Made by a program: the position numbers and the translations under genes
Part shown: piece after piece, positions 38,986-47,578 of the stretch
Position numbering within the stretch: the first letter of the stretch is position 1
Layout of the letters: every line of letters begins with the position of its first letter
Notes under the pieces: generated by a model
Seen by the model: the letters and a program-made list of their open reading frames with translations, nothing else
What the model was told of the DNA's origin: nothing
The model's database searches: none
DNA from: an uncultured Chloroflexia bacterium
GTDB taxonomy: Bacteria > Chloroflexota > Limnocylindria > Limnocylindrales > CSP1-4
Assembly: GCA_963763775.1 (NCBI GenBank)
Contig: CAVXPZ010000004.1
Span: 96,001 to 160,000 of the forward strand
DNA length: 64,000 nucleotides
Reading direction: 5' to 3'

Positions 38986-41339
38986 CGGGGGGCGGGCGCC
39001 GAAGCGCCTGACGTCGAGCCGCCTGGCTCGGATGCGCCCGGCGGGAGGGGCGCGATCGCGGGCACGGCCGCCATCGCGGCGAGGATCCGCTCCGGGCTCG
39101 CCGGCAGGTCCGCGATCCACACGCCGGTCGCGTCCGCGATGGCCGCGACGACCGCCGGCGCCCCGACGTCCATCGGCAGCTCGCCGACGCCCTTGGCCCC
39201 GTGCGGCACGCCGGAGAATGGGGCCTCCACGAGGATCGTCGAGATCCGCGGCGCGTCGAGCGCGGTCGGGATGATGTACGTGGCCAGTCGGTCGTTGAGG
39301 TACCGGCCGTCGCGCAGCTTGATCTCCTCGATGGTCGCGTAGCCGATCGCCTGCAGCGTGCCGCCCTCCACCTGGCCTTCCGCGAGGACCGGGTGGATGA
39401 CCCGGCCGACGTCGTCGGCGGCAACGACATCGCGGACATGGACCTCGCCCGTATCGAGGTCGACATCGACCCGGGCGACGCAGGCCGCCCAACCGAAGGC
39501 GGGATAGGCGTCGCCGCGGTAGGTCGCGTCGTCGAAGTCGATGCCCGGGTACGGCTCGAAGCGCTCGTCGATCCGGATCGCACCGGTCGCTCGGGCGTGG
39601 TCGCGGTAGACGGCGGCGAAACGACCGTCGGTCGCACCCTCGACCTGGTCGCGCAGCCGGCGAGCGGCCTTGATGACCATCCCGCCGACGACCATCGCGG
39701 TCCGGGACGCGACCGTCGGCCCCGAGTCCGGCACGATCGCGGTGTCCTGCGGGGCCACCTCGACCTCTTCGGCGGTCACCCCGAGCGCCTCGGCCGCGAG
39801 CTGCGGGAAGATGGTCTTCGTCCCCTGCCCCATCTCCGTGGACGCGGTCAGGATCCGGATCCGGCCGTCGGCGGTGAGCTCCAGCGACACCACCGACGCC
39901 AGCTTGACCTCGCCGGAGCCGGTGAACCCCGCGCCGTGCCACGCCAGGGCGAGGCCGATGCCGCTCGCGACCCGTTGGCGCTCGGTCCGCAGCGGCGAGC
40001 CCGGGATCGTGCCGCTGCCGGCGCGCTGGCTTCGGTCCCGGCCCGTCCGGGTCCGCAGCCGCTCGAACTCGGCGGCCTCGGCCGCGCGCTCGAGGACCTC
40101 CTCGCCCGCGACGCTCTCGCGGAGCACCTGGCCGGTCGGGGTGGTGTCCCCGAGGCGGTAGACGTTCCGGCGCCGGATCTCCAGCGGCGACAGGCCGAGC
40201 CGCTCCGCGATCCGGTTGAGATGCGTCTCGGTGGCGAACTCCACCTGCGGGGCCCCGAAGCCGCGGAACGCGCCGTTCGGCGGGGTGTTGGTCCGGGTCG
40301 CCCGCGCGCGGATCCGGACGTTGGGGCACCGGTACGGACCGCCCGAGTGCAGCGCCCCGCGACTGAGGACCACCGGGGTCAGCGTGCAGTACGCGCCGCC
40401 GTCCATGACGACCTCGATGTCCTGGGCGAGGAGCCGGCCGTCGGCGGTCACGCCGGTGCGGTGGCGGATGATCGCCGGGTGCCGTTTCGTGGTGGCCGCG
40501 ATGTCCTCGTGGCGGTCGTAGATCATCCGCACCGGACGCTCGGCCTTGAGCGACAGGAGCGCCGCGTGCAAGGCGATCAGCGAGGGGTACTCCTCCTTGC
40601 CGCCGAACCCGCCGCCCGTCTCGGCCTGGATGACTTGCGCCTGCTGGTCGTCGATGGCGAGGCCACGCTTGAGCGCTGTATGGACGTAGTACGGGCACTG
40701 GAGCGAGCCCGTGACCGAGACGCCGCCATCGTCCCGTGGCACGGCGATCATCGCGTTGTTCTCGATGTAGAGCTGCTCCTGGTGGCCGACGCGGTACTCC
40801 GCTTCCAGCACGTGGTCCGCGGCGGCCATCGCCGCGTCGACGTCGCCCGTCTCGATGTCGTAGTGGGCGAACGGGTGATCCGAGACCAGGGGGTCGAAGA
40901 CCGCGGGGAGCGCCTCCGTCCGGACGGTCAGGGCATGACGGGCGGCCCGCAGGGTGGCCCGGTCCGGGGCCGCGAGGAGGACGAGGGGCTCCGCGTGGTG
41001 CTGGATCTCGCCGCCCACCGGGACCAGGATCGGCTGGTCGGCCTTGATCGAGCTGACGACGTTGTCGCCCGGGACGTCCGCGGCCGTGACGACGACGACC
41101 GACGACCAGTCGAACGACGGGTCCAGGTCCACGGCGAGGAATCGGGCGTGGGCGTCCGTCGAGCGGATGGTCGCGCCGTACCAGGCGCCGGGGACGACGA
41201 TGTCGTCGGCGTAGAGCGCCGCGCCCGTCAGTTTCGCCGGGCCCTCGCGGCGCGGCGGCGGGAGGCCGCGCGCGCGACCGGGGACGACCGTATCGGGCTT
41301 GACGACGAGCGCGCCTGGCGGCTCGATCCGGGACGTCAT
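38982..41339 (-). CDS. Xanthine dehydrogenase molybdopterin-binding subunit
   Basis: KLTGAALYADD, QEQLYIE, GGGFGGK, TTKRHP, AFRGFGAPQ, MGQG, TVASR, GQVEGG, AKGVGELP. Confidence 0.92.
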   Translation of the reverse strand: MTSRIEPPGALVVKPDTVVPGRARGLPPPRREGPAKLTGAALYADDIVVPGAWYGATIRSTDAHARFLAVDLDPSFDWSSVVVVTAADVPGDNVVSSIKADQPILVPVGGEIQHHAEPLVLLAAPDRATLRAARHALTVRTEALPAVFDPLVSDHPFAHYDIETGDVDAAMAAADHVLEAEYRVGHQEQLYIENNAMIAVPRDDGGVSVTGSLQCPYYVHTALKRGLAIDDQQAQVIQAETGGGFGGKEEYPSLIALHAALLSLKAERPVRMIYDRHEDIAATTKRHPAIIRHRTGVTADGRLLAQDIEVVMDGGAYCTLTPVVLSRGALHSGGPYRCPNVRIRARATRTNTPPNGAFRGFGAPQVEFATETHLNRIAERLGLSPLEIRRRNVYRLGDTTPTGQVLRESVAGEEVLERAAEAAEFERLRTRTGRDRSQRAGSGTIPGSPLRTERQRVASGIGLALAWHGAGFTGSGEVKLASVVSLELTADGRIRILTASTEMGQGTKTIFPQLAAEALGVTAEEVEVAPQDTAIVPDSGPTVASRTAMVVGGMVIKAARRLRDQVEGATDGRFAAVYRDHARATGAIRIDERFEPYPGIDFDDATYRGDAYPAFGWAACVARVDVDLDTGEVHVRDVVAADDVGRVIHPVLAEGQVEGGTLQAIGYATIEEIKLRDGRYLNDRLATYIIPTALDAPRISTILVEAPFSGVPHGAKGVGELPMDVGAPAVVAAIADATGVWIADLPASPERILAAMAAVPAIAPLPPGASEPGGSTSGASAPAPR

Positions 41340-41436
41340 GCGGCGGGCGACCCTCCTCGAGGTCCGAGGGTACCATCGGGAGGACCGTCCGGACCCGGTG
41401 CGCACCGCTCGGCACCGAACCTCACCGGATGACCCA

Positions 41437-41561: not shown

Positions 41562-42311
41562 ATGGACCTGTCACAGGACACCCTTCTCGCCATCCTCGCC
41601 GCGGTGCTCATCGCGGACATCCTCGTCGTCGCCATCGCCCTCATCTGGACGCGATACCAGCAGCGCCGCGATCGGGCCGGTACGGCCATGCCGGTCGCGC
41701 CTGCGACGCCCCCTCGACCCATCACCGGAGCCACCCCGATGACCAGCCGTGCCTACCCGGCCGCGACCGCGATCAACGACCCCACGACCGATCCGCTGAC
41801 CGGTCTGCTCATGGCCGGGGCCTGGTCCCGGATCATCGTCGACGAGGAGGCCAGGATCCGGCGCTACCACCGGCCGGCGACCGTCGTCATCATCGAGATC
41901 GAGGGGCTGGACCGACTCGTCGCCCGCCTGGGTCCTGGCTCCGTCGACCGGATCGTGCCGGCCGTCGCCGACACGCTTCGGCGAGGGGCGCGCGAGGCGG
42001 ACCACGTCGCGCGGCTCGCCACGGGCCGGTTCGCGATCCTGATGCCCGAGACCGACGAGATCCTCGCGATCAACTACGTCGAGCGCGTCCGAAAGGCCTG
42101 CGACCTGTGGCTGGAGTCCGGCGCGGTGTCGCTGCGGCTGGCCATCGGCTGGGCGAGCTCCAGCGGTGACGGGTCGCTGGTCGACGCCGAGGCCCTGGCC
42201 ACGGACCGGATGTACGGCGAACTCCGTCGAGTTTCGCGTGGCAACAACCCCGACGCGAGCGGCGGCGCGGCTCCGACCAACGGCGGCATGGAGCCAGCGT
42301 TCGGCGGCTAA
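41562..42311 (+). CDS. Membrane-anchored degenerate GGDEF-domain protein
   Basis: N-terminal TM helix; DPLTGL; GGDEF position reads ATGRF; RxxD I-site (READ) retained. Confidence 0.8.
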   Translation: MDLSQDTLLAILAAVLIADILVVAIALIWTRYQQRRDRAGTAMPVAPATPPRPITGATPMTSRAYPAATAINDPTTDPLTGLLMAGAWSRIIVDEEARIRRYHRPATVVIIEIEGLDRLVARLGPGSVDRIVPAVADTLRRGAREADHVARLATGRFAILMPETDEILAINYVERVRKACDLWLESGAVSLRLAIGWASSSGDGSLVDAEALATDRMYGELRRVSRGNNPDASGGAAPTNGGMEPAFGG

Positions 42312-42324
42312 GGACAGCAGCGGG

Positions 42325-42458
42325 GGCCTCACCGCGCCGGGCCGCGGCAGGCCTCACCGGGCCGCGGCAGGCCTCACCGGGCCGCGCACGCCGCCACCGC
42401 GCCGGGCCGCGGCGCCGCGACCTCGCCGGGCCACGGCGCCGCCACCTCGCCGGGCCAC
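42325..42458. repeat. Tandem repeat array, 6 copies of CCGGGCCRC core, period 20-25 bp
   Basis: Cores at 42337, 42357, 42377, 42402, 42426, 42450. Confidence 0.85.
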
Positions 42459-42461
42459 TGT

Positions 42462-42572
42462 CAGTACCGGTTTCGTGAGATTCACGCTCAGACTGGTGCC
42501 AGACCGACATCAGATCGTCTGATTCGGCTGCAGTCCACGCTCGGCTGTCGCGAATCCGTCACCGTCAGTACC
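42462..42572 (+). repeat. Left arm of a ~111-bp diverged inverted repeat
   Basis: Blocks CAGTACC / GAGATTC / CGACA / GATTCGGC / CTGTCG / GTACC are collinear with the reverse complement of 43496-43606. Confidence 0.75.
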
Positions 42573-42664
42573 GTAGGCGGTCGCTCCGGGCGACTGGGCG
42601 GACGGGACCGACCTGCCGGATCGGGATAACCGACGGTGCAGCCTCGAGTGGTTGACTTCCGCCC

Positions 42665-43462
42665 ATGCTTCGGAAGTCCTTCGGCCAGGTGTGCTTCGAG
42701 ACCAGGGTCGCTCTCGACTTGAGTCAGACGCAGCTCGCCGCCCGGGCCGGCGTCACCCGAAGCTACATCGGACAGGTCGAGCGCGGCGACGCCAACATCA
42801 CGCTAGACCGGCTCGTGTCGGTCGCCAGCGCCCTCGGCATCGAGGTCGCGTTCGACCTTCGGCCGCCGACCATCATCGGGCGCCATCCGGGTCAGTCGGA
42901 CATCGTCCACGCCTGGTGCTCCGGCCATGCCGATCGGCGATTGCGCGCGGACGGCTGGTCGACGGCGCGGGAGGTCGAGGTCGTCCATGGTCGATCGCAC
43001 GGGTGGATCGACCTGCTCGCCTTCGATCATCGGACCGGCACGCTGCTGATCATCGAGATCAAGACGCGGCTGGACGATCTCGGCGCCGTCGAGCGGCAGA
43101 TCGCGTGGTATGAGCGAATGGCGTGGGGCCTCGCGCGCGATATCGGGTGGGAGCCCCGGCGGGTCGCGACATGGCTGCTCGTGCTTGCGAGCGACGAGGT
43201 CGATGCATCGTTGCGCATCAATCGGTCGGTCATCGATCGAGCGTTCCCGTCTCGCGCCGTTGAGATGACGGCCGCCCTCGCCGTGCCCGAGCGTCTCCGG
43301 CCTGGGGCTCGCGGGCTGGCGTTGATCGACCCCGCCGGGCACGGCCGGCGCTGGCTGATCCGCTCCCGTCTGGACGGGCGCCGAACGCCGGCGCGCTACG
43401 CGGACTACGCGGCGGCGGCCGCGAGAGTGTCGGGGCAGAAGACCGGGGCGCGACGTCGATGA
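42665..43462 (+). CDS. XRE-family HTH fused to a PD-(D/E)XK-type nuclease-like domain
   Basis: RVALDLSQTQLAARAGVTRSYIGQVERG (HTH_XRE); E-V...GWIDLLAF...LIIEIKT...QIAWY (D..ExK). Confidence 0.8.
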   Translation: MLRKSFGQVCFETRVALDLSQTQLAARAGVTRSYIGQVERGDANITLDRLVSVASALGIEVAFDLRPPTIIGRHPGQSDIVHAWCSGHADRRLRADGWSTAREVEVVHGRSHGWIDLLAFDHRTGTLLIIEIKTRLDDLGAVERQIAWYERMAWGLARDIGWEPRRVATWLLVLASDEVDASLRINRSVIDRAFPSRAVEMTAALAVPERLRPGARGLALIDPAGHGRRWLIRSRLDGRRTPARYADYAAAAARVSGQKTGARRR

Positions 43463-43495
43463 TGATCGGCGTCGCCCCTGCGAGGGTCGGGGCTG

Positions 43496-43606
43496 GGTAC
43501 CCCTAGTTGCCGATCGCCGACAGACGCCTCGAGGTCACCCGCCGAATCGACAGGAATCTGTCGATCCCTGGTCTCAGCACGCTCGAATCTCGCGGTTCGG
43601 GTACTG
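43496..43606 (-). repeat. Right arm of a ~111-bp diverged inverted repeat
   Basis: Reverse complement begins CAGTACCCGAACCGCGAGATTC (17/22 identical to the left arm start) and ends GTACC at the same offset. Confidence 0.75.
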
Positions 43607-43639
43607 GGAGTTCCCTCGCATGTGAGCGAGGACGGACCG

Positions 43640-43722
43640 GCCCGTCGGGCGGTTACGGCCCCTCGGGCGGGACCAGCCCCGTCGGGCGGGACCAGCCCCG
43701 TCGGGCGCGGAACGGCCCCGTC
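43640..43722. repeat. Tandem repeat array, ~5 copies of GCCC(C)GTCGGGCG, period 18-20 bp
   Basis: Units at 43640, 43658, 43676, 43695, 43715 (last partial). Confidence 0.8.
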
Positions 43723-43777
43723 TCTGCCGGTCGGCAAGGACGAGGCCGAGGAGCGCAACCGCGGCGGCGACCGAGGG

Positions 43778-45217
43778 CTACCCCGCGTTGATCTCCGCCG
43801 GCACGAGCCCCTCCCCCTCGGGATGGGCCGGCGCCGCGCCGATGATCACCTCCCGGCGGGCTCGACCCGGCAGGGCCAGGGCCACCAAGGCTCCGACGCC
43901 GACGACCGCCGCCCCGACCCACACGGCCGGGACCAAGCCGTCCACGAACGCGGTCGGCGACACGTACGAGCCGTTGGACGAGAACACGCTGGCCAGGACG
44001 GCGACGCCGAACACGCCGCCGATCTCGCGGATCGTGTTCGTCGCCCCGGATGCCTGGCCCTCCTCGATCCGGTCGACCGACGAGAGCACGACGTTCGCGA
44101 TCGGGGCGAAGAACAGCCCCATCCCGATGCCCGCGAGCACGAACCCGGGGACGAGCACCGGATACGCCACGGTCGGCGTCGTCACGGCCGCGATCCAGGC
44201 GAGGCCGGCGGAGAGGGCCACCATGCCGGCCACGAGGATCGGCCGGCCGCCGATGCGCCCGGCGAGGACGCCGGCGAGCGGCGCCACGATCGCGGGCATC
44301 GCGGTCCACGGCAGGGTGCGCAGCCCCGACTGGAACGGGCTCAGGCCCTGGACGATCTGGAAGAACTGGACGAGGAGGAACACGGCGCCGAAGACGCCGA
44401 AGTACATGAGGAACGACACCACGTTGGCGGCCGTGAAGCCGCGGCTGCGGAAGAACCGGAGGGGAAGCATCGGCGACGCGGTCCGCGCCTCCCACGCGAG
44501 GAACAGCGCCATCAGCACCGCCCCGATCGCGAGCGCGGTGATGATCTGCGGGTCGGTCCAGCCAAGGTCGTTGCCGTGGATGACGCCCCACACGAGGGCG
44601 AACAGCCCGGCGCTCACGAGGCCGAGCCCGGGCAGGTCGAGGGCCCCGTCGGGACCGTAGGACTCGGTCAGCCGGAAGGTCGAGAGCACGATGGCGACGA
44701 TGCCGATCGGAACGTTGAGCCAGAAGATCCAGTGCCAGTTCACGCCTTCGGCGATGGCGCCGCCGACGAGCGGGCCGATCGCGATCGCCAGGCCGGCGAT
44801 ACCGCCCCACGCGCCGAGGGCGACCGCTCGTCGCTCGGGCGGGACCGCGCCCGACAGGATCGTCAGGCTCAACGGCGTCACGAACGCGCCGCCGACGCCC
44901 TGGATGGCGCGCGCGACGATGAGGAGATCGCTCGACGGCGCGAGCGCGGCCGCCGCGGAGCCCGCGGTGAAGATCACCAGGCCGAGGATGAACATCCGAC
45001 GACGACCGAACCGGTCGCCGAGGGCGGCGCCCGTCAGCAGCAGGACCGCGAAGGTCAGGGTGTAGGCGTTGACCATCCACTCGAGCGCCGACAGCGAGGC
45101 GCCCAGGTCGGCCTTGATGACGGGCAGGGCGGTCGTCACGACGAGGTTGTCGAGCGCGACCATGAACAGGGCGACGGAGGTGATGGCGAAGGTCCATCCG
45201 GTCCGAGACAACCGCAT
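43778..45217 (-). CDS. DHA2-family MFS efflux transporter
   Basis: FMVALDNLVVTTALP, LGDRFGRRR, GPLVGG, WHWIFWLNVPIG; 14-TM pattern. Confidence 0.93.
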   Translation of the reverse strand: MRLSRTGWTFAITSVALFMVALDNLVVTTALPVIKADLGASLSALEWMVNAYTLTFAVLLLTGAALGDRFGRRRMFILGLVIFTAGSAAAALAPSSDLLIVARAIQGVGGAFVTPLSLTILSGAVPPERRAVALGAWGGIAGLAIAIGPLVGGAIAEGVNWHWIFWLNVPIGIVAIVLSTFRLTESYGPDGALDLPGLGLVSAGLFALVWGVIHGNDLGWTDPQIITALAIGAVLMALFLAWEARTASPMLPLRFFRSRGFTAANVVSFLMYFGVFGAVFLLVQFFQIVQGLSPFQSGLRTLPWTAMPAIVAPLAGVLAGRIGGRPILVAGMVALSAGLAWIAAVTTPTVAYPVLVPGFVLAGIGMGLFFAPIANVVLSSVDRIEEGQASGATNTIREIGGVFGVAVLASVFSSNGSYVSPTAFVDGLVPAVWVGAAVVGVGALVALALPGRARREVIIGAAPAHPEGEGLVPAEINAG

Positions 45218-45902: not shown

Positions 45903-45975
45903 CGCATGTCAACCCCGGCAGATGACGACCCGGGCCGAGCCGGGCGGAGCCGACGGGGGAAACGAGCCGAGACGG

Positions 45976-47578
45976 TCAGTCGCGGCCCAGTCGGATCCCT
46001 CGCCCGGGCGTGGCCCCCGTGTGTGCGCCGTCGTCGACGACCACCGTGCCGTTGACGATGACGTGCTCGATGCCGTCGGGATACCGCCGCGGCTCGTCGT
46101 AGGTCGCGTTCGAGCGCACCGTCGCCGGGTCGAAGACGACGATGTCGGCGAAGGCGCCGTCCCGGAGCACGCCCCGGTGACGCAGCCCGAGGCGTGCCGC
46201 GGCCGCGCCGGTCATCTTGCGGATCGCCTCCTCGAGCGAGAGCCTCGCCTCGTCACGCACGAACTGGCCGAGGATCCGCGGGAACGAGCCGTAGGTCCGC
46301 GGCGCCGGCTTCTCGCCGAGGAATGTCGAGTCCGTGCCGACCATCCCGACGGGGTGCGCGACGAACAGCGGCAGCGTCTCGGCCATCGGCCCGCTCGTGA
46401 CCTGAGCGACCCCGAGCCGCTCCGAGAGCAACAGGTCGCAGATCGTGTCGACCGCGTCGCGGCCGGTCTCGGTCATCACCTCGGCGAGCGTCCGCGACTC
46501 CCAGCGGAGGTTGTCCGACTGCGTGAACGCCCCGAGGCGCAGGTCGGCCCAGCCGGCCGGCCCCGTGTAGGCGGCGCCGCGCGCCGCGATCTCGACGCGG
46601 ACCCGGTCGCGCGCGGACCGGTCGGCGAGCCTCGCCTTCAGCGGCCCCGGTCCGCCCTCCTGGATCCACAGCGGCAGCTGGATCAGCAACCGGGTGCTGG
46701 CCCATTCGGACGGGTAGGTGTCGAAGGTGACGTCGAGCCCTTCCGCGCGCGCGTCGTCGATGAGGGCGAGCAGGCGGTCCGCCGGTCCCGGGTGCGTCTC
46801 GCGGTGGTAGAAGTGCGTGATGTGCGACGGGCGCGTCGGCGCGTCGCCCGATCTCGATCGCCTCGCGGAACGGGTCGAGATAGCGGTCGCCGAGCGCGTA
46901 CCGCACGTGCGTGTGGTAGATGCCGCCGGCCCGGCCGGCCTCGGCCGTGAGCGACGCCAGCTCCTCGGTGGTCGCGAACGCGCCGGGCGGGTAGTCGAGG
47001 CCGGAGCTGACGCCGACCGCGCCATCCGCCATCGCCTCGCGGAGCCGCCCGCGCATCCGGTCGACGGCGGTGGCGTCGGCCGGGGTGTCCTCCCAACCCA
47101 CGGCGTCGATCCGGAGGGCGGAATTGCCCACGAGCGTCCCGATGTTGACGCTGACCGTGCCGTCGAACCGGGCGAGGTAGCTCGCGACCGAGTCCCAGTC
47201 CAGGTCGATCTCCGGCCGCCCGTCGAGGCCGGCGTCGAGCTCCACGAACGCCTCGAGGTCCGCACGCGACGCGAACGGGGCGAACCCGTTCCCGTCGACC
47301 CCGACGATCTCGGTGGTGATGCCCTGGCGGACCTTGGGCTCGTGGCGCGGCTCCGCCAGGATGACGAGGCCGCCGTGGCTGTGCAGGTCGATGAACCCCG
47401 GCGCCACCACCCGTCCCGTGGCGTCGATCCGGCGACCGACACGCTCCGGCAGGTCGGCATCGGGCGCCAGGAGCCGCAGCCGCTCCCCGTCGACGACGAC
47501 ACTCCCGGCGCGCCCCGGAGCGCCCGTCCCGTCGACGATCGTCCCGCCCGTGATCAGGAGATCCGCGTGGTCAGCCAC
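45976..47578 (-). CDS. N-acyl-D-amino-acid deacylase-family amidohydrolase (frameshift near 46826)
   Basis: VAPGFIDLHSH, QGITTEIVG, SSGLDYPPG, HTHVR, FDTYP, RTYGSFPR, ADIVVFDP. Confidence 0.85.

Follow-up and report, generated by a model that had tools for sequence, protein, structure and literature searches.

The stretch of DNA analysed here (the window, 64,000 nucleotides from an uncultured soil bacterium of the Chloroflexia) contains a gene whose product joins an XRE-type helix-turn-helix (HTH) domain to a PD-(D/E)XK-like nuclease domain, and which has on either side a copy, or arm, of a dispersed pseudo-palindromic repeat of about 120 nt. The cassette of repeat, gene and repeat is an insertion between convergent GGDEF and MFS genes, and the solo copies of the repeat found elsewhere are insertions too. 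Our best reading is a selfish partnership like that of the REPIN-RAYT systems, formed on an unrelated enzyme, in which we infer binding, cutting and joining from the combined analyses. On balance we think it probable that the boxes of its own repeat subfamily are where the protein binds and cuts, and that DNA bounded by such boxes spreads. Genomes of the genus are numbered G (G000, of ~3.3 Mb, being the genome of the window), contigs C and homologue loci L.

The insertion of the cassette was read from 29 relatives with an orthologue of the MFS gene, 1.5 kb of flank being compared at each locus; the MFS orthologues that lie beside a GGDEF gene are 84-92% identical. In 9 of the 29 the convergent GGDEF and MFS genes have no HTH-nuclease gene between them, and their alignment ends are ~65-250 bp apart; in the window the gap is 1466 bp and has one gene inside it. 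These empty spacers often hold a terminator-like hairpin. The GGDEF gene was not within the 1.5-kb flank in 19 of the relatives, and the remaining one has a distant homologue. G017, which by its MFS protein (92% identity) is the nearest relative, has the empty site and lacks both a close homologue of the gene and any match to the repeat. The first-pass annotation of this locus had proposed a mobile or selfish cassette, for which empty GGDEF-MFS sites were the trace to look for, and the nine relatives provide them. No contig bridging an empty site occurred among the contigs of the sequencing runs, in which the matching shares were small (at most 0.12). Solo repeats show the same kind of polymorphism: the spacer that holds the copy at C1:1435466 measures 205 bp here and 73 bp in G017, and the spacer around a solo copy on C88 of G089 measures ~287 nt, compared with ~12-57 nt in G007, G015 and G011. 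The gene itself is present once in the genome of the window, and matches at E <= 1e-30 reach five copies in G024 and four in G089. In G024 there are 12 protein matches in all, and two of these (C1:470238-470979 and C3:1053862-1054621) are split over two overlapping frames and are apparently frameshifted copies.

The repeat family comprises 16 copies in the genome of the window, 119-123 nt in length and mostly 120 or 121 nt, with a weak seventeenth. No further copy was found in this genome by blastn-short with either arm, a misleading negative, because a seed profile made from four arms (window and L005) did find full-length matches elsewhere in the genome and was the first search to do so. Solo arms, which the annotation had suggested looking for throughout the genome, are thus represented by 14 copies away from the cassette. 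The family consensus reads CGGTACTGnCAGTACCGGTTCC..GACA.CCGAGCGTGG...GATCGACA-loop-TGTCGATCC...CCACGAGG...GTCGCGAAACGGGTACTGGCAGTACC, in which the core elements follow in the order GAGCGTGG, then GATCGACA-loop-TGTCGATC, then CCACGAGG. Each end of the repeat is a 15-nt palindromic box, GGTAC-N5-GTACC, with box centres ~106 bp apart, so that the boxes of the 120-bp module are separated by about ten helical turns. The two end boxes are inverted with respect to each other and the centre is a further palindrome; since the element is nearly symmetric, it can be read both as a direct and as an inverted repeat.

All copies lie between gene calls based on GC content at third codon positions, or overlap merely the start of a call that is probably over-extended, and most stand no more than ~130 bp downstream of the 3' end of some gene. 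Four copies in the same orientation occur within 8.6 kb at C3:822408-830982 (L063:5409-13983), each behind one of a set of paralogous operons for ECF-sigma and PD40-repeat proteins, and these repeats may have been duplicated together with the operons. Two pairs of C3 repeats 2 kb apart were considered as further cassettes and rejected, given their location behind the paralogous ECF-sigma and PD40-repeat operons.

The annotation had described the two arms of the window as a nearly gapless inverted match built of conserved blocks. The blocks are all present at the claimed offsets (CAGTACC at 1-7, GAGATTC at 16-22, CGACA, GTC-GATTCGGC, CTGTCG, and GTACC at 107-111), but the pairwise signal is weak, with 53 of 111 positions identical in an ungapped comparison of 42462-42572 with the reverse complement of 43496-43606. 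Local alignment of the intergenic flanks gives a score of 24, which lies above every mononucleotide shuffle (14.1 ± 2.2, maximum 22, n = 300) and every dinucleotide shuffle (14.4 ± 2.3, maximum 23, n = 100) of the flanks, but in a control set of 200 random genes of comparable size from this genome, 2% also have an inverted flank score of at least 24. The pairwise evidence alone for the arms is therefore marginal, and the control genes would allow an accidental likeness in GC-rich intergenic DNA. What decides against accident is a profile built solely from the 14 solo copies, which finds both arms at E values of 1e-14 to 1e-19 (61.2 bits for the right arm and 44.0 bits for the left), together with the recurrence of the same architecture in dozens of genomes. 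Chance similarity of the arms is ruled out on these two grounds, and we assign it a vanishingly small probability.

The arms had also been taken for the diverged inverted ends of one element, and this is contradicted by the family alignment, in which the identity between the arms is 46%, while each shares 58-64% with its nearest solo copies. Because each arm is nearer to solo copies than to its partner, the two are separate members of the family and no diverged pair. The right arm lies on the minus strand (61.2 bits against 22.8 bits for the plus strand with the solo profile), an orientation favoured by 13 of the 14 solo copies. The strand of the left arm is ambiguous, at 44.0 bits for minus and 34.7 bits for plus, with minus favoured by 11 of the 14. 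Compared directly with one another, the arms favour the inverted arrangement (scores of 24 against 15 and of 18 against 9). The left arm scores 82.5 bits with R1, a covariance model of the 16 copies of this genome that was trained partly on the left arm.

The association of gene and repeat extends through the genus. R1 was searched on both strands, with at most 35 candidates scored per genome, and matches occur in 45 of 100 other genus genomes, while close protein homologues (E <= 1e-30) occur in 51 of the 100. Both are present in 36 genomes, the gene only in 15, the repeat only in 9 and neither in 40, giving an odds ratio of 10.7 (Fisher p 1.3e-7), uncorrected for kinship and drawn from genomes of which many are 60-90% complete. 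An R1 match directly adjoins the gene in 48 of 80 homologue loci (E <= 0.05) and does so on both sides in 17; in an earlier, overlapping set of loci at least one adjoining match was seen in 27 of 40 (E <= 0.01). A count made without the model, omitting locus L197 for its wrongly sliced upstream flank, found 22 of 71 loci whose two flanks resemble each other more than those of 200 control genes do at the 99th percentile. Among homologues with complete flanks the closest, L005 (56% identity), has an inverted pair of ~111 nt with a score of 37 (z 11.7).

The arrangement around the gene is regular as well. The upstream copy has the orientation of the gene in all 14 callable loci, and the spacing is conserved, with roughly 90 nt from the upstream repeat to the start codon and 30-70 nt from the stop codon to the downstream one. 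Relative to the upstream copy, the downstream copy is direct in 9 of the 14 and inverted in 5. Of the expectation that homologues would carry conserved inverted flanks, the conserved flanking repeats are borne out and the inverted orientation is not general. The idea that the arms co-occur with the gene holds, both in the like flanks of homologues at similar distances and in the odds ratio of 10.7. Among the alternatives the annotation had offered for the arms, REP-like elements tied to the protein are the best fit, given the solo copies, the genus-wide co-occurrence and the boxes that track the recognition helix.

The system appears to belong to one lineage. The best 80 of 156 confirmed genome stretches with the gene nearly all carry the labels Candidatus Limnocylindrales, uncultured Chloroflexia or Chloroflexota, and in a sister family the protein is found in 0 of 16 genomes. 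Homologues in the databases are all named 'XRE family transcriptional regulator', one of them labelled Candidatus Limnocylindrales. Many homologues lie on contigs of ~1-1.5 kb, about the length of one repeat-gene-repeat unit, which suggests that the repeats break metagenome assemblies.

The gene content of the cassette is as the annotation had described it, an HTH_3 domain with a nuclease-like domain and no recombinase family. Pfam HTH_3 matches residues 14-61 (E 8e-14, 51.9 bits against a gathering cut-off of 23). The nuclease part reaches the cut-off of no Pfam nuclease family, its one hit being a weak match to NucS_C (E 0.004). DDE, serine, tyrosine and HUH families were not found in the enclosed protein with Pfam or NCBIfam. 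Matches of NCBIfam and PADLOC are to the HTH part alone, with the PADLOC Control_protein models at E 2.5e-11 and a Type II restriction endonuclease model that covers the HTH part only, and the nuclease part fits no PADLOC family.

The AlphaFold2 model, computed from 34 homologues, has a mean predicted local distance difference test (pLDDT) score of 92.6 and a disordered linker. Its HTH domain is closest to C.AhdI (Z 10.9, root-mean-square deviation (rmsd) 2.5, 62 residues aligned, 44% identity) and also resembles C.BclI. The elements H80-95, E99-108, E111-121, E126-133, H139-159 and E166-174 compose an alpha-beta-beta-beta-alpha-beta core in the nuclease domain. This domain aligns with 2okf_B (Z 9.0, rmsd 3.5, 119 residues) and with 1y88_A (Z 8.2, rmsd 3.0, 107 residues), at Z values that are middling and near those often reached by unrelated models, and with an identity of 12-15%; Foldseek also returns the R2 endonuclease and SduA. 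Residues E103, D116, E131 and K133 are invariant in 34 of 34 homologues and would form an E...D...ExK site. The PD-(D/E)XK-like active site, for which the annotation had called for a model, is thus predicted both by the core fold and by these four residues, and because the classic motif is invariant, the enzyme is likely active. As a homodimer the protein scores 0.72, against 0.00 for the best control, with the interface in the HTH domain; of 30 proteins whose structures were solved as pairs of one chain, 20 attain the mark used, as does 1 of 23 solved as single chains. Separate dimer runs have at least 88% of contacts in common and a partner pLDDT of at least 85.

More distant relatives of the protein were also seen. 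Two paralogues occur in the genome of the window, at C4:82981-83571 (27% identity, 13 kb before the window) and at C3:341222-341443 (38% identity). Matches to paralogues at ~30% identity are common in the genus (20 of 24 genomes at E <= 1e-5), and some distant-paralogue loci have significant flank self-similarity (L018, z 7.3; L027, z 5.2).

The repeats that flank homologues keep a common plan and differ in their boxes, of which the types GGTAC/GTACC, GTTCC/GGAAC, GCGCC/GGCGC, GTCAC/GACAC, GGTCA/TGACC and GTGCA/TGCAC were found, every one of them palindromic and present at both ends of the repeat. Two types occur together in G089. One gene copy (L118) is flanked there by repeats of the GGTCA-N7-TGACC type that are ~95% alike (direct score 153), and 17 further copies of this type, at 73-96% identity, occur in the same genome; the element is ~160 nt long and has two boxes per end. 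A second gene copy of G089 is flanked by repeats of the GGTAC type. The same genome has gene-less pairs of repeats ~100 nt apart at C130:10893-11233 and C6:112-440. In the C130 doublet the first copy is of the upstream type and the second of the downstream type of the gene unit on C78, as in an internally deleted unit.

Comparison of the recognition helix (residues 28-43) with the box type over about 25 loci showed that the two sort together. The helix TRSYI..ERGDA goes with a GTACC box (2 loci), RGYxAN with a GCGCC or GCGTC box (5 loci), SRPxI with a GTCAG box (2 loci) and ..ELG with a GTTCC box in 4 of 5 loci. From sequence comparison this sorting fits an HTH domain that reads the boxes.

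The boxes change with the protein and the HTH domain is predicted to dimerise, which argues for recognition of the repeat as a palindrome in duplex DNA and not as RNA. The annotation had raised the possibility that the arms encode non-coding RNAs, and the structural searches do not bear it out. A search of Rfam gave a single match, at chance level (E 3.9) and outside the arms. RNAalifold kept three pairs on the 16 copies, in a central GAC/GTC. A palindromic structure drawn by hand, in which the second helix is mis-registered, has 71.9% of its cells paired, compared with 70.6% after shuffling, and its covariation score is weak, being equalled by 15 of 500 shuffles. Single copies fold from end to end as imperfect hairpins (z +0.6 to -6.1). 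Sequences and models together point to a duplex palindrome as the recognised form, and a cruciform or single-stranded form is also possible.

The mechanism that we favour would operate in an uncultured Chloroflexota lineage labelled Candidatus Limnocylindrales, to which the nuclease gene and its own dispersed repeats appear to be specific. A dimer of the protein would read, through its C-protein-like HTH domain, the boxes of the cognate repeat subfamily, and the PD-(D/E)XK domain would cut at or near them. DNA bounded by boxes, whether a solo repeat, a gene-less doublet or a whole repeat-gene-repeat unit, would then spread into short spacers behind genes, with mobilisation presumably in trans. 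The cassette of the window would be one such repeat-gene-repeat insertion between the GGDEF and MFS genes, now old and degenerate. Since we know of no strand-transfer activity in PD-(D/E)XK domains, the scheme assumes that host repair, or the copying of a filled site, rejoins the ends. A more ambitious version, to which we give tentative and clearly lesser credence, is a new class of prokaryotic mobile element with an HTH-PD-(D/E)XK nuclease as its sole protein, whose dimer would cut the end boxes for host repair to join; solo modules, doublets and the gene unit would all move, and protein and boxes would co-evolve into mutually exclusive subfamilies.

Several observations weigh against the favoured mechanism. 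PD-(D/E)XK enzymes cut and do not join, and to our knowledge a nuclease-only transposon is without precedent. Binding, cleavage and transposition by this protein are what we infer from sequences and structural models. Filled sites were set against empty ones at three places, and at each of them exact borders and a target-site duplication are unreadable, because the spacer DNA of the species has diverged too far to be aligned. The solo copies in the genome of the window are on average 60% identical in pairs and so are old, and with a gene in single copy there is no sign of current activity in this genome; the arms of the cassette are the most degenerate members of the family. Fifteen genomes have the gene and no R1 match, nine have an R1 match and no gene, and 32 of the 80 homologue loci have no adjoining match, a shortfall that may come partly from incomplete genomes and from a model of one subfamily. 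The sorting of helix and box has an exception in L126, where the ..ELG helix is not paired with a GTTCC box, and it could arise from shared descent of gene and flanks, for which the comparison is uncorrected. The dimer result, finally, may mirror likeness alone, because dimers of XRE and C proteins are among the solved structures.

Other explanations account for part of the data. The nuclease could instead be a homing enzyme that cuts a solo repeat, after which repair would copy the repeat-gene-repeat unit into the cut and recombination between the flanks would leave solo repeats behind. PD-(D/E)XK homing endonucleases exist, a nuclease alone would suffice for the process, and the flanking copies are mostly direct and sometimes near-identical (as at L118, with a direct score of 153 and ~95% likeness), while in G089 the upstream-type and downstream-type copies each have solo relatives. 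Homing cannot, however, make repeats at new loci, and repeats are inserted at sites that are empty in relatives; none of the nine relatives has a solo repeat at the GGDEF-MFS site, the arms of the window are 46% alike with each nearer to other copies, and the inverted flanks of 5 of the 14 callable loci are not expected from simple copying. We regard homing as unlikely. A similarly low probability attaches to the possibility that the protein is a self-regulated, solitary restriction-like or defence nuclease, with the HTH as a fused C domain, the adjoining repeats as operators and the solo repeats as decoy or regulon sites, dispersed by another mover. The HTH domain is indeed nearest to restriction-modification controllers (C.AhdI at Z 10.9 and 44% identity, and C.BclI), the Control_protein models match at E 2.5e-11, the Type II restriction endonuclease model lies over the HTH part only, and the upstream copy keeps one orientation and one distance from the start codon, in the manner of an operator. 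Yet the cassette contains no methyltransferase or defence gene and stands between a GGDEF and an MFS gene, PADLOC has no family that fits the nuclease part, and an operator role leaves unexplained the copy past the stop codon, the 14 solos behind unrelated genes, the recent, near-identical copies of G089 and the gene-less doublets.

It is also conceivable that gene and repeats are unrelated neighbours, the repeats being MITE-like or REP-like terminator elements that depend on some other enzyme and the gene a plain regulator found in the same spacers. Repeats and cassette both favour short spacers behind genes, nine genomes have repeats without the gene, and every database name is that of a regulator. 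This explanation we judge very improbable: it must contend with the odds ratio of 10.7 for co-occurrence, with the 48 of 80 loci, from varied genomic contexts, in which a repeat adjoins the gene at a fixed distance, with a box type that tracks the recognition helix and with catalytic residues that do not vary. Moreover, a genome of 3.3 Mb with ~16 copies is not expected to have two of them within 100 bp of the same gene by chance. The partnership of protein and repeats described above is the reading that we retain.

Table 1. Features of the cassette and its surroundings in the window.
Feature	Position	Strand	Remarks
GGDEF-domain gene, left neighbour, 289 aa	41442..42311	+	Pfam GGDEF E 2.4e-10; converges on the cassette, outside it
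GC-rich tandem array, periods 20 and 24	42332..42458	.	Tandem Repeats Finder; between GGDEF stop and left arm
Left arm, 120-nt copy of the dispersed pseudo-palindromic repeat, degenerate	42454..42573	.	Solo-only profile E 2.6e-14
91-nt spacer, upstream repeat to start codon	42574..42664	+	Presumed 5' control region
HTH-nuclease gene, 265 aa: HTH 1-60, linker 61-79, PD-(D/E)XK domain 80-250	42665..43462	+	
Right arm, 120-nt repeat copy, 33 nt past the stop codon	43496..43615	-	Solo-only profile E 1.3e-19
GC-rich tandem array, period 19, right arm to MFS stop	43633..43722	.	Tandem Repeats Finder
MFS transporter gene, right neighbour, 479 aa	43778..45217	-	Pfam MFS_1 E 2.1e-64; converges on the cassette, outside it

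The 91 nt that separate the upstream repeat from the start codon (Table 1) are matched by similar spacers of ~80-100 nt at homologue loci L105 and L108. A simple scan of 42250-43850 for promoter (sigma-70 consensus) and terminator consensus sequences gave no match, and in one RNA run coverage fell on the GGDEF gene alone. One soil-metagenome contig skips 105 nt of the left tandem array, joining 42339 to 42445 before continuing into the left arm, and the array therefore varies in copy number; it is probably a non-functional part of the locus that behaves like a minisatellite. The empty site of G017 has a 27-nt tandem repeat of its own, unrelated to the arrays of the window. Two further long open frames near the cassette, 39201-41432 (+) and 45922-46950 (+), have no Pfam match at E <= 0.01; the gene call at 39201-41432 is uncertain because the DNA is GC-rich and other long frames overlap it on the opposite strand.

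If the protein acts on the repeats, a partnership of repeats with a dedicated enzyme arose a second time, with an unrelated enzyme and in a soil phylum that has been little studied. It would show how a population of repeats can be sustained by a plain nuclease that has a domain for reading DNA, and the matched helices and boxes would offer, ready-made by nature, a set of sequence-specific nucleases each paired with its site. Annotation is affected too: the databases contain more than 800 proteins with the name 'XRE family transcriptional regulator' in which a nuclease domain, apparently active, has gone unrecognised. No published account of an HTH-PD-(D/E)XK gene with its own repeats was found, as judged by titles and abstracts.

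The known systems that share single features with this one differ from it in others. With the restriction-modification C proteins (C.AhdI, C.BclI) it has in common a controller-type HTH, a predicted dimer through that HTH and presumed sites that are palindromic; here, in contrast, the HTH is fused to a nuclease, and the presumed sites lie in a mobile 120-nt repeat with many copies per genome. Unlike a Type II restriction-modification system with a C protein, the nuclease has no methyltransferase beside it, the 1466-bp gap being bordered by the GGDEF and MFS genes. The XisH-like protein 2okf, entitled fdxN element excision controlling factor in its entry, and the protein AF1548 (1y88) share the alpha-beta-beta-beta-alpha-beta core, in which E...D...ExK is present here, but the identity is only 12-15% and neither protein has an N-terminal XRE HTH. 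Miniature inverted-repeat transposable elements (MITEs) with an autonomous parent, and composite transposons, offer parallels in that the elements are short and non-coding with inverted termini, are polymorphic in insertion, have derivatives that lack the gene and can bound a gene unit with two copies. They differ in that the enclosed gene here encodes no DDE, serine, tyrosine or HUH enzyme and in that each flank is here a complete element and not one end of an element. Target-site duplications, a further mark of such elements, are unreadable here in the diverged intergenic DNA.

The closest comparison is with REPIN-RAYT. Published accounts describe the RAYT as a dedicated enzyme gene flanked by its own dispersed palindromic repeats, which stand mostly behind genes, between convergent or tandem genes, and co-occur with the gene (PMC3733652, PMC3337134, PMC5581495). 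REPs are given there as hairpins of 20-40 nt, often in inverted doublets (PMC3733652), and RAYTs as single-copy and vertically inherited (PMC3337134, PMC5581495). An enzyme gene flanked by its own repeats, repeats mostly behind genes and between convergent or tandem genes, and gene-repeat co-occurrence are found in both systems. The repeats here are 119-123 nt long with 15-nt end boxes, in contrast to 20-40-nt REP hairpins with GTAG or CGTC tags, and the gene here is patchy in distribution, occurs in up to five copies, has pseudogenes and is absent from the nearest relative, G017. The enzymes differ as well, an XRE-HTH with PD-(D/E)XK here and an HUH/Y1 (IS200/IS605-like) tyrosine transposase in RAYT, and the flanking copies here are more often direct than inverted. 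In enzyme, repeat type and copy-number behaviour, which are defining features of REPIN-RAYT, the system departs from that family, yet its architecture works like REPIN-RAYT.

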